A stretch of DNA of 64,000 nt from Candidatus Margulisiibacteriota bacterium (GTDB taxonomy: Bacteria; Margulisbacteria; WOR-1; O2-12-FULL-45-9). Position numbers: made by a program. Position 1 is the stretch's first letter. Every line of letters begins with the position of its first letter. This document shows positions 27,001-33,000 of the stretch, piece by piece. The DNA lies in NCBI GenBank assembly GCA_034723395.1, contig JAYEOW010000004.1, positions 1 to 64,000 of the forward strand, written 5' to 3'.

Positions 27001-30000
27001 ACGCCGGAGGAATGTTCTATAATCCGGCCGGACTGGCAAAAATCGAATTCCCGCAACTAACCGCGACTTCACGAAAGCTGGTACTTGATGAAGTCAATTA
27101 TTCCTTGATCAGCTGTGCAATGCCAACCCCGTGGGGAACATTTGGGATCGGTTATGTCGGTCTCGGAACTGGTGGATCACTCTCTACTAAGCTTGATCCG
27201 GGGACTAACCGGATTATTATCGATCCAAGCCGCGAAGCGACCAGTTATGATAATACGGTTGCGATGGTCACCTATTCCAAGCAGGTAAAAATTCCCCAAT
27301 TACCAAATAAGATTTCGGTTGGCGGCAATCTCAAATTCTTTAATCAATCGCTTAGCGGAGATATCACCAGCCGGGCCACCGGAATGGGAATCGGCCTTGG
27401 AGCGCTTTACCGTACCAACGAATGGTTAACTGTAGGAGGGAGCCTGCAAAACCTGCTTGAAGGGAATATGCAGTGGTCTGGAGGAGAAAGCGATAAGGTC
27501 GGCGGTAATTATAAATTGGGCGCGCGTGTTAATATCCTCGGCTCAAAAGAGGCCTTGGTCAGACATGCCCATACACTCTACGGCGGAATAGATATGGACA
27601 TACCGCACAGCACAAACACATCCGCCAGCTATCATCTTGGGGTCGAGTATTACCCGATGAAAAAGGTCGCTTTAAGGACTGGACTTAACATGGAAGGGAA
27701 CGGCGCCGGGCTTAATTTTGGCGTCGGTCTTGAGAACGGCGGTTTCAGGTTCGATTATGCTTATGCTCCACGCCCGGGGATTCCGGGCGACCCACCCCAC
27801 TACTTCACGATCTCTTATGTGGGAGAAAGGGTGATCAGTTTCTTGGTTGATAAAAAGCCAAAACGGAGAGAATCACTGGTAAGTTTTTCTAAGCCTAAAG
27901 ATCGGACAATTACCGATAAAGACTCGATTGTCATTTCCGCAGAAGCTAAGGCGGTTAAATATCTGGATAAAACTACGATCTACAAAGTAACCGCAATTTC
28001 CGAAACAAAAGAAGTTACGGAGATTAAAGAAGTAGAAATCCTTAATCCTGTATATCTCAATGGCGTTAAACTTGCTCAGGTTGGAAGTATTTCAGCAACT
28101 TCCCCCCTCAGTACTGGAAGAAATCTATTCCAGATTACCGGATTTACTTCACCGGAGTCTTACCCGGAAGTAGGAACTCCTGAAATCTTTGCCGGTTCCG
28201 CAGAAGTTAAGGTCTTGCGCTTTATCCCGTTTAAAGATACCCCGATGGACTACTGGGCGATTCGTCCGGTCGCCCTTTCGGTCACACTAGGATTGATCAA
28301 AGGTTATCCAGGGAATACTTTTAAACCTGAAAAAGGGATCACCAGGGCAGAATTAGTTACTCTGTTAGTGAGAAGTATCGCAGAGATCGATCTTGATCTG
28401 CCAATCGAAGTCGTCCCATTCATCGATGTTAAGAAAGATCACTGGGCGGCAAAACATATTACCCACGGTTCGCGCGAACAACTGGTCACCGGATATCCGG
28501 ACGGCAGCTTTAAGCCGAAGAAGGTGTTGACCCGAGCAGAAGGGGTAACTATATTAGCCAGATATTCAGGTCTGATCGGTGAAAATATAACTAGACCTCC
28601 ATTCCCGGATCTTAAAGAAGATTACTGGGCAAATAAATATATCGCGCCGGCCAAAGCGGCGGGATTGCTTGAATATCTCAAAGGTAAAGATTTCGAACCA
28701 AATAAACCTTTCAGCCGGGCCGAAGCAGCCGAAGTGCTCTATCGCACGCCAAAGATCCAAAAGAGAGTTAATCAATACTGGGAAACTGGTTTGATCTCTG
28801 CCCAGGAAGTTAAAACTCGCGAAGCGCCTAAGCCTAAGGAAAAACCAGAAGAGATTAAAACAAAAACTACCACTGGTGAAGCACAACCAGCCGAAAAAAC
28901 AATCACTAAGCCGGCTACTTCTGAGGGGAAATAGTTACCCTCTATCTCTTAAAAATCCTATCTTTTTTGTTTTTGAAGGTGGAGCAAGAATATTCCGCAA
29001 AGCATCAAAAACTATTTTAAATTGTGTGTCGCACTTCTTTTCTAGTGCTGTTATTTTAGAAAGTATATCCCTATGCGATGATATTAATTCTCGTAAACGC
29101 ACAAAGGTTTTCACAATAAGGATGTTTAACTGAATAGCTCTTTTACCTTTCAACACACTGGAAAGCATTGCAACTCCTTGTTCAGTAAAGGCATAGGGTA
29201 AATAAGGAGAATGTTTAATTCGAGATAACCTATCACAATTTGTGATAAGTTCTTTTTTCTCCCTTTTTGTTAATTTAAACATGAACTCCTCTGGGAAGCG
29301 TTCACGATTACGCCTTACAGCCTGATTCAAAGCCATTGTTTTAACTTGATAAAGCTCTGCCAAATCCCGATCAATCATCACCTTTAGCCCCCGAATAAAA
29401 AATATCCTATTCTCTATAACCTCAACAGGAATTATTTTCCTCATTCCTCACCTCCCATCACTTTGAAACAATCACCCTTATCCTCTCCCCATCCGTCTTT
29501 ATCACCACCGCCCCATGTTTATCCGTACGGTAAATATTAATCCCTCTCCCCCGCAACTTCTGCAATGTACTCTTATGCGGATGTCGGAATTTATTTCTCC
29601 TGCCGCAGGAGATGACGGCTATTTGAGGATTAACTGCGTCTAGAAAATAATCAGAAGTCGATGTTCGGCTCCCATGATGCCCCACCTTGAGGATATCCGA
29701 GTCCAAGAGATCTGGAAAAAACCGCGCTAGAATCTGTTCTTCCCCCTCTTTCTCATTATCCCCGGTAAACATCATTGTAAAATCCTTATATCTTAATCTA
29801 AAAACAATCGATACATCATTTATATTTTCCAAAAAAGGGGACATCGGATGCAATATTTTTGCCCTAACCTCTTTTCCAAAGCTAATCATCTGTCCTGCTC
29901 GAGCGGTTAAATGTTTTATTTTATTTCTCCTGATTAATTCCTTAAATAGTCGATAAGAGCGGGTGTTATACGGCGCTCCCGGGTCCAGAACCGTACCTAC

Positions 30001-33000
30001 TTTTATTTTTTGAAGGAGCGGACGCAACCCCCCCACATGATCTTCGTGGGGATGGGTCAGAATTACCATGTCAAGTTTATTAATTCCTCTCTTTTGCAAA
30101 TATGCGATCACGATCCTCTCTCCCATCTTCTCTTCTCCCCCATCCACCAATATCTTTTTGCCCGACGGGGCTTCGATCAATATGGAATCCCCTTGCCCTA
30201 CATCTAAAACTGTAATCGTAAGCCCTTTTATTGGGGAAGAAAGCGCGGTATTCCAGAGTAAAACACAAACGACTACCAGCGCGAGAGTAATCAGCCTGAA
30301 CCGGTTAAGTTTTGGTATTTTCCCCCGGCGAACGACCTCAGCCCCCAGGACAAGCGCGGTGTAATATCCGATGACCAATGGGAATTTTGGCGGAGCCAGA
30401 TAGAGCATGGCAAACGGAAAGGAGGCCAGGCTAGAAACGATCTGGTGCGCTATCCAGAGCAATATCAGATTAGCGCCATTAATCAGTTCCCCCAAAGGGA
30501 GAAAGATTGAACCCAGAACAGTTGAAACAAAACCGAGGATAACAACAAACCCGATCCAGGGAAGAAGCAAGATGTTGGTTAGCACCCCAACGATCGAAGT
30601 CTGGCTGAAGTGAAAAAGGGTAATGGGAACGGTCGCCAGTACCGGAGCGATCGCCACCGAAACCAGGCTCGATAATGCCTTGGGCATCTTATCATTTATT
30701 CTTTCGTTCATGACCGGCGCAACATAAACCAGAGCCCAGGTCGCGGCAAATGAGAGCTGGAAACCGACTTCAAAAAGCACTTTCGGATTAAAAAGTAAAA
30801 TTAGAAAAGCGGCAATCGCCATCGAAGTATAAACCTCCTTTTCTTTTTCGAAAAGAAGGCCGACTAACATAATCTCGGCCATAATTGCGGCGCGTAAAAT
30901 CGATGGGCCCGCTCCGGTCATCAAGGCATAAAAGATATTCACGGCACTGGTAATTAATATTCCCAACCAAAGTGGAAGTCTTAACGAACGGACCAGAAAA
31001 AGGCAGACCCCGACCAATATCCCCAAATGCATCCCGGAAGCGACTAAAAGATGGGCAACCCCGGCCCTTTTATAGGTATCTTTGATCTCTCTAGGCGCTT
31101 TGGCCGCTTTGGTCCCAAAAACAATGCTGGATAGTAAGGTGGAATAAGGTTCGGGGAGGGTTTTTTGAGGAATAAGCATTAAACGATTTTTCAGATTAAT
31201 ACTTAGTTTCTTAAAAAAGTCTCCACCATGCCCGATAACTTTTGGAGGAGCTCTGGGAGAACGAACTCTGCAGCGTATCCCCCTATTCTTCAAATATTGC
31301 GCATAGGATAATATCCCTGGATTTGTAAGGTCGTCGATCCCCTCAAGTTTCCCTTTAAGATCAATTTTATCGCCATATTCCAGTCGTGATCTTTTACTGA
31401 CCACCGAAAGAAGGCCGGAAACGTTTTTATCGTTTACTTTTTCAACATCTAACGTGAAGAATGCTTTATCTTCCTTAAACCTCGGCTCATCAGCAATCCG
31501 GCCGATAATAGTCGAATACTTGCTATTAGGAAAGTTGGAAATATCGTCTTTTGGAGGAGGCAGGTTGCGAATCTGAATGTTGAGTAATCCTATTAAGAAA
31601 AATAAGATAATAAAAAAGTAATGGGTATTAATATTTTTAATAATTCCATATAAAAGGAATCCGATTGAAAATAATATTAATAATAATACAAACCATAATG
31701 GAAATGCTACTGTTTTACCAATAATAATTCCCAAAATATAAAAAATAACTATAAGTATTAATGGATTGTTCATTTAAAACACATAACAATTGGCATATAT
31801 ATTTGTCTTTTTGTTATTAATCCTGCTTTATTAAGTTCGTGGCAAAAACATACCTCATAAACACTTTCTAACAAACCTGGCCCAAGATTTTTGTGCACCT
31901 TATATGCCGCATTAACAATCTCTTTTGCAATTAATTCTTCCCTTAAGGATATTGGCTCAAAATTCTTTGTGTCCCTTTGTGCCTTAGTGTCTTGGTGGTA
32001 ATTTTTCATATAATAATCTCATCCTTAATCTTTCCAAATTTACCCTTCCCGATCCTTTTAACCTTCATAATATCCTCGATCTTAGAGAACGGCCCGTTTT
32101 TAGACCGGTATTCAATAATCCTTTTTGCAGTAGAGGGCCCGATCCCGCCAATTTTACACAATTCTTTCTCTCCAGCCGCATTGATACTAACTTTACCTGA
32201 AAAAGTCCCCGATCCCCCAATCCCCAGATCTCCCGGTCCTCTTACGATAACTTTCTGTTTAGCAGGGACTATAATCTTCTGCCCATCTTTTACTTTTTCG
32301 GCCAGATTGATCGAAGATAAATTGGAATTAGCAGAGACCCCGCCGGCAAGATTTAACGCGTCAACCACCCGATCACCAGCATTAAGCCTATATACCCCTT
32401 CCCTTTGCACGGCACCTGAGATATGAATAATGATCCGAGGTTTTTCGATCGTTTGCTGCGGATCTTCGATCACAAGTTCCTCGCTTTTATCCGGAATAAA
32501 ATGCCGGCAGCCCATAACTACGAGGCCGGAAATAATAATTAGAACTAACCCTAGAATAATAAGTTGTTGCTCTTTAGTAAGATTATTTGGCACAAAATGA
32601 GAGAAGCAATCTTATTACCAACTATTTTTCGCTAATCAAAGGGGGAAAAAGACACAAACTCGACATTGAATGTCTTAAATCTTGTGGTAATACTTGAAGA
32701 TATCGTTTATATACGCCTGTGATTGTCCACTATATCCATTCTTGCGGGCCACTCCGTTCGGCCCTTCCAGATAACCGGCCAAAGCAAAAGAGACCTGTTT
32801 CGCCCTTTTTTTAAATCTGCCTAAAAGATAACTCACATAACGAATGGTCCCTTTGGCATTCTGATCAATATTAAATGGATTAGTTATCCCCAGGCTCTTA
32901 GCCGTAGAAGGCATAAGCTGGCCCAAGCCCCTCGCCCCCGCGCTCGAGACCGCTCTCGGATTAAAGCGTGATTCCCGGGCAATCAAGGCCGCCACCAGTT

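Follow-up and report, generated by a model that had tools for sequence, protein, structure and literature searches.

We found that sigma-54 (RpoN) is probably the late-competence sigma factor of WOR-1/Saganbacteria, with one NtrC-family protein, activator 2, acting via an upstream palindrome. The sites, their targets, their conservation, three classes of upstream motif and a covariation between palindrome and recognition helix were observed in genome sequences; from these we infer binding, transcription, transcript starts, kinase pairing, a signal and transformation of cells. In the proposed mechanism, a 7TM histidine kinase and activator 2 would form one two-component system, and activator 2 would bind the palindrome on one helix face, 19–94 bp ahead of the -24 box. 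The promoters that it would then open belong to comEA-comEC, yraN-comM, an accessory ssb and a compact set of pilus genes (a short ATPase, lipoprotein-secretin, pilC-major pilin with a peptide ABC transporter after it, and four minor pilins behind topA-panC); in many relatives it would also switch on its own gene. Nitrogen genes and a pseudo-activator operon would share the sigma factor but depend on different activators and upstream sites.

The sigma-54-type site and the genes behind it

The genome examined (Margulisbacteria, WOR-1/Saganbacteria) is 97% complete, and the window is the whole stretch of 64,000 nucleotides that was analysed. The strict pattern was TGGYAATA-N3-TTGC, with GG-N10-GC as its core. 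Genome-wide, 12 strict sites were found where a 4th-order Markov model expected 0.83, and each other spacer from 0 to 11 gave 0–3, which bears out the 12 sites at spacer 3 counted in the genome-wide survey's note. A relaxed matrix scan of this genome gave 13 matches above 18 bits, of which the 13th was intragenic, and added no convincing site to the 12. Every one of the 31 genomes of the order had 4–20 strict sites (reversed pattern, 0–2), and 34 other genomes of the class had 0–4. The motif spans 16 bp with an invariant GG-N10-GC, its enrichment is confined to the 10-base separation, and the base following the pattern, outside the search, was T in 142 of 146 sites. The sigma-54 consensus is printed as TGGCACRNNNNTTGCW (PMC4371752). 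Its canonical -24 flank TGGCACR was not matched, the flank being TGGYAATA in the order and variable elsewhere in the class; TGGTA is present in the K. oxytoca nifH promoter (PMC12096077). Besides, TGGCACACTTTTTGC (9 copies) mimics a perfect sigma-54 site, but it is an insertion-sequence end and was excluded.

An rpoN gene is present here (TIGR02395 above cut-off) and in 28 of the 31 genomes of the order. Four NtrC-like proteins are encoded, of which three keep the sigma-54 contact loop (GSFTG/GAFTG); the earlier claim of several NtrC-type activators thus stands for these three but not for the fourth, a 415-aa protein without the loop. The reading of the motif as a sigma-54 promoter is supported by its fixed GG-N10-GC geometry, rpoN and the three intact activators. 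It is also supported by the same site before amtB and glnA and by upstream palindromes that divide the promoters into three classes, one per activator.

The comEA-comEC unit lies in the window and is arranged as follows (all on the minus strand):

32675..33298, minus: lytic transglycosylase (SLT) gene, directly upstream of comEA; context and possible read-through source
32650..32665, minus: candidate activator site, a weak copy of the 16-bp palindrome; 29 nt separate it from the -24 box
32605..32620, minus: promoter of the sigma-54 -24/-12 type, TGGTAATAAGATTGCT, with the site itself at 32606–32620; 12 nt separate it from the GTG start of comEA; conserved in relatives
32006..32593, minus: comEA, 195 aa; membrane anchor, SLBB and helix-hairpin-helix (Pfam)
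31770..32009, minus: GxxExxY cassette gene, truncated, 79 aa, inserted between comEA and comEC (TIGR04256 positions 2–50 of 116)
29458..31773, minus: comEC, 771 aa; DUF4131, Competence and metallo-beta-lactamase (Pfam)
28935..29444, minus: gene for a 169-aa ORF6N-domain protein, at the end of the comEA unit (Pfam)

No Shine-Dalgarno sequence was found between the site and the comEA start, and the transcript is predicted to begin at or adjoining the start codon. The palindrome copy scored 5.6 and 5 with two matrices, below the cut-offs, and its gap of 29 agrees with the preferred spacing. No terminator-like site was found between the SLT gene and comEA, and comEA could also be read by read-through from the SLT gene. 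As for leader length in general, a Shine-Dalgarno sequence occurred in 1 of 32 genes starting 16 nt or less from the site and in 48 of 50 starting 20–45 nt from it. Many mRNAs of the regulon look leaderless, and the pattern of start codons and Shine-Dalgarno sequences fits a predicted transcription start about 12 nt after the GC.

Listing all 12 sites confirmed the seven uptake or pilus units and two nitrogen units claimed earlier. The former are comEA, yraN-comM, a 120-aa ssb, lipoprotein-secretin, a 327-aa pilus ATPase, ORF6N/four-helix/pilC-pilin and ORF6N-topA-panC-pilins; the latter are porin-amtB-glnK and glnA. The remaining three sites precede a small-ORF/pseudo-activator operon, a lone ORF6N unit and no gene at all. 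The targets of 146 sites in 10 relatives were 56 competence or pilus units, 18 nitrogen units, 10 regulators, 37 cassette-only units and 25 others, with yraN-comM a core target in 9 of 10 genomes and the accessory ssb in 6 of 10. In the order, the short pilus ATPase had the site in 25 of 26 cases and a degenerate one in the 26th, and the long pilB in 0 of 20. Sites mark accessory paralogs, and housekeeping paralogs are without them. The topA gene has its own sigma-70-type promoter behind the sigma-54 site. A second, sigma-54-marked pilM was seen in one genome only and is not conserved. The survey's note had also reported no site before dprA, comF, recA, radA or pilB, and this holds for all except dprA, which had a site in 3 of 30 loci and in one further genome. 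Within 1.5 kb of recA, none of 30 genomes had a strict site, and there was one relaxed match; comF, radA, pilT and pilM-Q had none in this genome. Two observations speak for a role in competence: the choice of targets (comEA-comEC, yraN-comM, the accessory ssb and a compact pilus set) and the absence of sites from housekeeping paralogs. The site-marked pilus would be one that takes up DNA.

Conservation, upstream palindrome and candidate activator

Of 28 genomes of the order, 27 had the GG-N10-GC core before comEA, as did 26 of 27 other genomes of the class. The conserved comEA site, reported before for 22 orthologues, was recovered in its strict form in 22 of 28 genomes of the order, always 12–15 nt before the start; four more had a one-base variant, one had the site ahead of an inserted ORF6N gene, and in one the contig ends too early. 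GG-N8-TTGC occurred in the comEA upstream windows of 25/28 genomes in the order and 22/27 in the rest of the class, other spacings giving 0–2 and 0–6, respectively, and the background was 67 of 1643 genes. Outside the order, yraN-comM had the site in 15 of 20 cases. The signal had been described as weaker outside the order, but the site is kept in the class and relaxed only at the four bases after TGGC; the apparent weakness arose because the strict pattern was used. In other classes a site preceded comEA in 1 of 20 and comEC in 4 of 33 readable loci, and two families accounted for all of these.

In competence promoters a palindrome lies in helical phase upstream of the -24 box, and nitrogen promoters have another upstream motif instead. 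In leave-one-genome-out runs, which were seeded from the full-data motif, palindrome scores above 8 were found in 19/56 competence, 14/37 cassette and 1/28 nitrogen or regulator promoters and in 7/280 shuffles; because of shared seeding and training, neither this test nor the helix test below, whose training sites were picked with that test's matrix, is fully independent. The gaps to the -24 box cluster at 19, 30, 41, 51, 62, 73, 84 and 94 (period 10.75, R 0.61, n=43); phasing was clear only within 100 nt, a limit chosen after the data were seen, and was weak when all 150 nt were included (p 0.02, each genome-gap pair counted once). Most palindromes end 19–42 bp from the -24 box, closer than the 100–150 bp given for enhancers (PMC7057263). 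The palindrome alone was not enriched genome-wide (62 matches above 12 bits vs 79 in the reversed genome); 3 of the 4 intergenic matches above 14 bits fall in these sigma-54 promoters. An SOS-box reading was rejected, none being found before uvrA, radA or ruvB.

Activator 2 (REC-AAA-HTH, NtrC family) is encoded at C7:77071-78423 in this genome, with the 7TM histidine kinase gene divergent from it. Matrices for the palindrome forms were built from activator-2 promoters. Within the order, genomes with an A/P/V-R recognition helix contributed 107 promoters, of which 64 had the 16-bp form, 43 were without it at the cut-off, and 3 had the 17-bp form; the two genomes with an H-R helix had the 17-bp form in 11/11 and the 16-bp form in 1. 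Outside the order, H-R genomes again showed the 17-bp form (9/14, vs 0/14 for the 16-bp form), and A-type genomes were mixed (3/9 for each). The palindrome form, 16 or 17 bp, tracks the recognition helix of activator 2; inside the order the switch of helix is confined to a single genus and so amounts to few independent events. The rpoN-linked activator had an identical helix in 9 of 9 genomes read, and its own downstream motif was constant. The activator-2 gene itself has a site in 6 of 30 loci in the order and 9–10 of 19 outside it, with palindrome and site together in several families; in this genome it is without a site. Nitrogen and competence genes share the sigma factor and not the activator site, and so are probably not co-induced.

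Mobile cassettes and alternative explanations

ORF6N genes lay directly behind the promoter in 17 of 20 cases, in agreement with the earlier observation that they follow sites, and the other three belonged to units that it heads. Behind the promoter there are also many genes for GxxExxY proteins, four-helix bundles and RAYT-like transposases, often remote from competence genes. Within each genome, the flanks of the promoter are homogenised. That the sigma-54 competence circuit, with a self-activating enhancer-binding protein, is also exploited or served by small mobile cassettes is a tentative proposal from these arrangements. The cassettes may be expressed in time with competence and spread together with a promoter copy, or may regulate recombination. 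A closed pheromone loop is also conceivable, made up of the 7TM kinase and the peptide ABC transporter encoded after the major pilin.

A different explanation is that the motif belongs to mobile cassettes (ORF6N, four-helix bundle, RAYT-like transposase), as their end or their target, and reached competence genes by insertion. A cassette came first behind 47 of 146 sites, and promoter flanks resembled each other more within a genome (0.40) than across orthologous loci (0.28). However, 46 competence promoters are without a cassette and keep 12–15 nt to the start codon across the class, the same site precedes glnA, amtB and the pseudo-activator operon, and 17 of 29 four-helix genes have no site, which makes this explanation very improbable. 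It is hardly credible that a sigma-70-family factor like ComX or SigH recognises the motif: such factors are described as driving other competence regulons (PMC12236230), but the 16-bp motif has an invariant GG-N10-GC, and 12 nt from motif to leaderless starts fits a -12 and not a -10 element.

The sites might also be real sigma-54 promoters whose palindrome is bound by a repressor or architectural factor, with activation coming from the rpoN-linked activator or from solution. The palindrome lies unusually near the -24 box, is absent or weak at many promoters, and has a 5-6-5 layout similar to that of CRP-family sites. Nevertheless, we consider this quite improbable: no CRP/FNR protein match was found in this 97% complete genome, so that a CRP-family binder was rejected, the form tracks the activator-2 helix whereas the rpoN-linked helix and its motif are constant, and activator-2 genes themselves carry palindrome and site in several families. 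Finally, activator 2 may control sigma-54 promoters of a programme other than transformation, namely DNA uptake for food or repair, or a surface and pilus function. For this speak dprA, recA and comF, which are mostly outside the regulon, the peptide ABC transporter after pilC-pilin in 8 of 8 relatives, and the nitrogen genes on the same sigma factor. Against it, yraN-comM and the accessory ssb are core targets, dprA is directly recruited in four genomes, and nitrogen promoters have a different upstream motif; furthermore, YraN with ComM is described, in the accessible part of the report, as resolving the transformation D-loop (PMC13663708). On balance this alternative is unlikely, and a late-competence role for RpoN and activator 2 remains the preferred reading.

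Relation to known competence systems

In the open literature we found neither a description of sigma-54 promoters at comEA, comEC or comM nor anything on regulation in this lineage or on the cassettes; competence terms were absent from the text and 11 supplements of PMC12316311 and from the main text of PMC3162934. The closest precedent is Ralstonia solanacearum, where RpoN1-PehR controls pilA and RpoN is needed for natural competence, an effect ascribed to the pilin (PMC4371752). As predicted here, a sigma-54 factor and an NtrC-family response regulator are required for pili and transformation in that system. However, the predicted targets in the accessible part of that study include pilA and no comEA, comEC, comM or ssb, whereas here uptake and recombination genes would carry the promoter themselves. 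The survey's statement that RpoN had not been described for competence therefore needs to be narrowed: a link through pilA exists, and direct control of comEA, comEC, comM or ssb was not found in print. We found no description of competence control by sigma-54 and one dedicated activator in a cultured bacterium.

The pilus resembles the Bacillota ComG pilus in its short ATPase (327 aa), short platform protein and one major plus four minor pilins, and in having no dedicated PilMNO or PilT in the site-marked set. It differs in that the ATPase scored 273.8 bits against the ComGA model, short of the cut-off of 300, and did better against GspE/PilB models, and in that a secretin is included; with the ATPase below the ComGA cut-off, ComG membership was not supported. 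The head of ComGC-type major pilins is all-helical. A predicted model of the major pilin here (pLDDT 75) has a three-stranded sheet, and a fold search with it gave no match at E 0.001 or better.

Vibrio cholerae TfoX/QstR is likewise a diderm regulon with comEA, comEC and comM; it is under TfoX, QstR and HapR and includes comF, and the accessible part of the report mentions no direct sigma-54 promoter at comEA (PMC6237807). The regulons of ComX/SigX (streptococci, lactococci), SigH (Staphylococcus) and ComK (Bacillus) are similar in that one regulator heads scattered late genes, and they share comEA-comEC, pilus genes, an accessory ssb and positive feedback on the regulator (PMC12236230). Those regulators belong to other protein families, and sigma-54 here would need an ATP-driven activator. 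The dprA, comF and recA genes are usual members of ComX/SigH/ComK-type late-competence regulons, whereas here they are mostly outside.

The lineage is near Cyanobacteria, and a candidate activator, its candidate site, the sequence code joining both and a candidate sensor kinase are now named and testable in E. coli. Leaderless sigma-54 transcripts and a natural RpoN-box variant are predicted. The results also suggest a route to transformable members of this uncultured class and give a functional handle on ORF6N proteins. Known competence programmes use ComX, SigH, ComK or TfoX-type regulators, and direct control by sigma-54 with an ATP-driven activator, if true, would be a new class of master switch.

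Sigma-54-type sites and predicted transcript starts

The window is contig C4 of the genome (1.68 Mb, completeness 97%), which was compared with relatives at three nested levels, i.e., 31 genomes in the order, 65 in the class and 146 in the phylum. Genes were called with a custom hexamer-scored caller, and start codons are therefore estimates. The strict site was defined as TGGYAATA-N3-TTGC, with GG-N10-GC as its core. In the window, the order of genes behind the site is comEA, a truncated GxxExxY gene, comEC and an ORF6N gene:

32606-32620, minus strand: sigma-54-type site, 12 nt before comEA

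We found 12 strict sites at spacer 3 in the genome, against 0.83 expected and 0-3 at other spacers; in a matrix scan they scored 21.7-28.6 bits, with the next match at 18.1. Their targets were 7 uptake/pilus units, 2 nitrogen units, 1 small-ORF operon holding an NtrC-like protein (415 aa) that lacks the sigma-54 contact loop (the pseudo-activator operon) and 1 lone ORF6N unit; the genome-wide survey's note likewise gave 12 sites, with 7 at uptake/pilus units and 2 at nitrogen genes. One of the 12 (L338, C3:26066-26220) has a strong upstream palindrome and only short low-complexity repeats behind it; this gene-less promoter may be what remains of a lost cassette, or may serve a small RNA. All 31 genomes of the order had strict sites (4-20 per genome; reversed control, 0-2). 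A further consensus match, TGGCACACTTTTTGC (window 103-117, plus strand; 9 genome copies), was rejected, as it belongs to an insertion sequence's terminal inverted repeat. Copies of this element are about 1 kb and 0.2 kb long, five are at contig ends, and the match points outward, with a TTGACA box behind several copies.

The core was invariant and was followed by a T which lay outside the search pattern, yet was present in 142 of 146 sites. The sigma-54 consensus, as printed in the portion of PMC4371752 consulted, is TGGCACRNNNNTTGCW. The survey had listed rpoN and several NtrC-type activators; rpoN is present, as are three activators with an intact contact loop, while a fourth NtrC-like protein lacks the loop:

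Upstream of amtB: NifA-like GAF activator
Behind rpoN: first REC activator
Contig C7 (77071-78423): second REC activator (activator 2), a REC-AAA-HTH protein of the NtrC family

When the first gene was within 16 nt of the site, a Shine-Dalgarno sequence was seen in 1 of 32 cases, and at 20-45 nt in 48 of 50, as expected if transcripts start about 12 nt past the site. Such starts would give leaderless comEA, yraN and ATPase mRNAs. Across this genome, TATAAT-like boxes are most frequent 6-9 nt ahead of start codons, so near that leaderless genes appear to be common. Judged by its sequence, the motif is genuine and can be taken with near certainty as a sigma-54 promoter. In the RpoN box, the residue at the sixth place was tyrosine in 13/13 single-copy RpoN proteins of the order and in 0/17 from the rest of the class; the coincidence of this tyrosine with the AATA flank is only a lead because it represents a single event. 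Changes in the RpoN box can alter the -24 preference, at residues other than the sixth place in the sections of PMC12096077 consulted. One relative (G112) has a second rpoN with a lysine-type box (L039) on a separate contig, which may not belong to the bin.

Target genes and their distribution

All 146 strict sites of 10 relatives were annotated. The site was found at comEA and yraN-comM in 9 genomes each, at pilC and lipoprotein-secretin in 8 each, at topA and the short ATPase in 7 each, and at ssb in 6. Starting from the genes, comEA had a site in 27/28 cases in the order (with one-base variants counted, as well as one case in which the site precedes an inserted cassette) and the short ATPase in 25/26. 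The survey considered the pattern weaker outside the order; this does not hold for the core, which was retained at comEA in 26/27 cases (one with a GG-to-AG change) and at yraN-comM in 15/20, and it is the flank alone, the four bases after TGGC, that varies there. In other classes the site was mostly missing (comEA 1/20, comEC 4/33); rpoN was detected in 124/146 genomes of the phylum. At six loci of these classes (L283, L286-L290) a TTACGT/ACGTAA motif, possibly the mark of another competence regulator, lies just before comEC, and no sigma-54 site was found there. In one family outside the order (G093, G094, G096, G098) the short ATPase directly follows comM, a physical link. Named homologs of this ATPase were from Margulisbacteria, WOR-1 and Saganbacteria.

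Two pilus sets are encoded in the genome, one with sites and one without:

Unmarked set: pilB (557 aa), pilC (408 aa), pilM-Q, pilT and pilins
Marked set: 327-aa ATPase; shorter pilC and 138-aa pilin; 379-aa secretin and lipoprotein; four minor pilins

Similarly, the marked ssb is a lone 120-aa copy, and two ssb genes in the rpsF operon are unmarked. The reported lack of a site before pilB was borne out, with no AATA-type site in the 3 kb preceding the matched part in 20 long-pilB loci (one only 589 bp long). It also stood for recA (30 genomes, all lacking a strict site within 1.5 kb) and, in this genome, for comF and radA, and pilT likewise had no site here; dprA, mostly inside operons, had a site in 3/30 loci and in one further genome. 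The order topA-panC-four pilins was seen in 6/6 complete loci. A sigma-70-type promoter also lies behind the sigma-54 site at topA, and the latter may thus mainly serve the pilins. A peptide ABC transporter followed pilC in 8/8 cases. At C7:69596-78423 (L329, L341), activator 2 converges on the pilC-pilin and transporter operon, as in two relatives, and recO follows the kinase gene; a four-helix-bundle gene (C7:70309-70692) separates ORF6N from pilC, whose start is ambiguous in this genome.

Cassettes, upstream palindrome and activator 2

The sites are also shared by cassettes (ORF6N, four-helix-bundle, GxxExxY and RAYT-like transposase genes). Five genomes gave 22 ORF6N matches, of which two were fragments and were left out; of the 20 examined, 17 had the site directly ahead, one was second in tandem behind a site, and two were downstream of yraN-comM. 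Four-helix-bundle genes had a site in 12/29 cases. Promoter flanks 14-30 nt upstream showed an identity of 0.40 within a genome versus 0.28 between orthologous loci, partly because of genome-specific palindromes and base composition. In G105, five Y1/RAYT-like transposase genes (L015, L021, L023, L029, L031) each lie behind a site, and three of the flanks contain a near-identical 70 bp common to its comEA, yraN, topA and pilC promoters. In G126, a 491-aa tyrosine recombinase-AAA fusion (L104) starts 12 nt past a strict site; no site precedes the homolog in this genome (C50:12735-14210).

Upstream sequences sorted into three classes:

YGDCG-AAWTTT-CGHCR (palindrome): competence and cassette promoters
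TACA-N4-TGTA: nitrogen promoters
TTGCAC-N8-TGCTAA: before the pseudo-activator operon

With one genome left out at a time, the palindrome passed in 19/56 competence, 14/37 cassette, 11/25 other and 1/28 nitrogen/regulator promoters. With this genome held out, scores were 16-17 for ATPase and yraN, 10 for pilC and only 5.6 for comEA; one nitrogen promoter scored 9.1. The distance from palindrome to -24 box rises in steps of one helical turn, and the palindrome lies closer to that box than enhancers typically do (100-150 bp in the part of PMC7057263 consulted). Four G126 sites before lipoprotein/envelope genes (L108, L112, L122, L127) share another upstream sequence, which may point to an additional class of activator in G126.

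The best candidate for binding the palindrome is activator 2. Its own gene had a sigma-54 site in 6/30 loci in the order and 9-10/19 outside, usually with the palindrome too, and its recognition helix occurs in two forms, A/P/V-R and H-R. Matrices trained on activator-2 promoters were applied to competence promoters. In A/P/V genomes of the order, the 16-bp form was found in 64/107 promoters and the 17-bp form in 3; the two H genomes of the order had the 17-bp form in 11/11, and H genomes outside it in 9/14 versus 0/14 for the 16-bp form (shuffled controls, 7/513 and 6/513). Related genomes are not independent in these counts, and the choice of training sets was not blind. Outside the order, A-type genomes were mixed (3/9 for each form), and a genome with both helix types had both palindrome forms. 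In the rpoN-linked activator neither the helix nor the downstream motif varied. Divergent from activator 2, both here and in many relatives, lies the gene for a 540-aa kinase with a 7TM sensor. No CRP protein was found in this genome.

Comparison with known systems

These observations suggest that RpoN and one dedicated activator would run the late-competence genes across the class, and we regard such a predicted regulon as likely. The survey held that RpoN was not described for competence. A term search of a 2025 transformation review (PMC12236230, partial text) gave no mention of RpoN, competence terms had no match in a term search of two sigma-54 regulon surveys, and we found no report of direct sigma-54 control of comEA, comEC or comM in the literature covered, which excluded subscription papers and some supplements. 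The broader statement needs amending, since transformation of Ralstonia requires RpoN, an effect ascribed to pilA in the part of PMC4371752 consulted. What is known already is this RpoN requirement, and what appears to be new is the predicted direct sigma-54 control of the comEA-comEC and yraN-comM units. The place of action of YraN-ComM is the transformation D-loop, according to the section of PMC13663708 consulted. Membership tests for a ComG pilus failed or gave no decision; the parts list of the marked set is nevertheless reminiscent of one.
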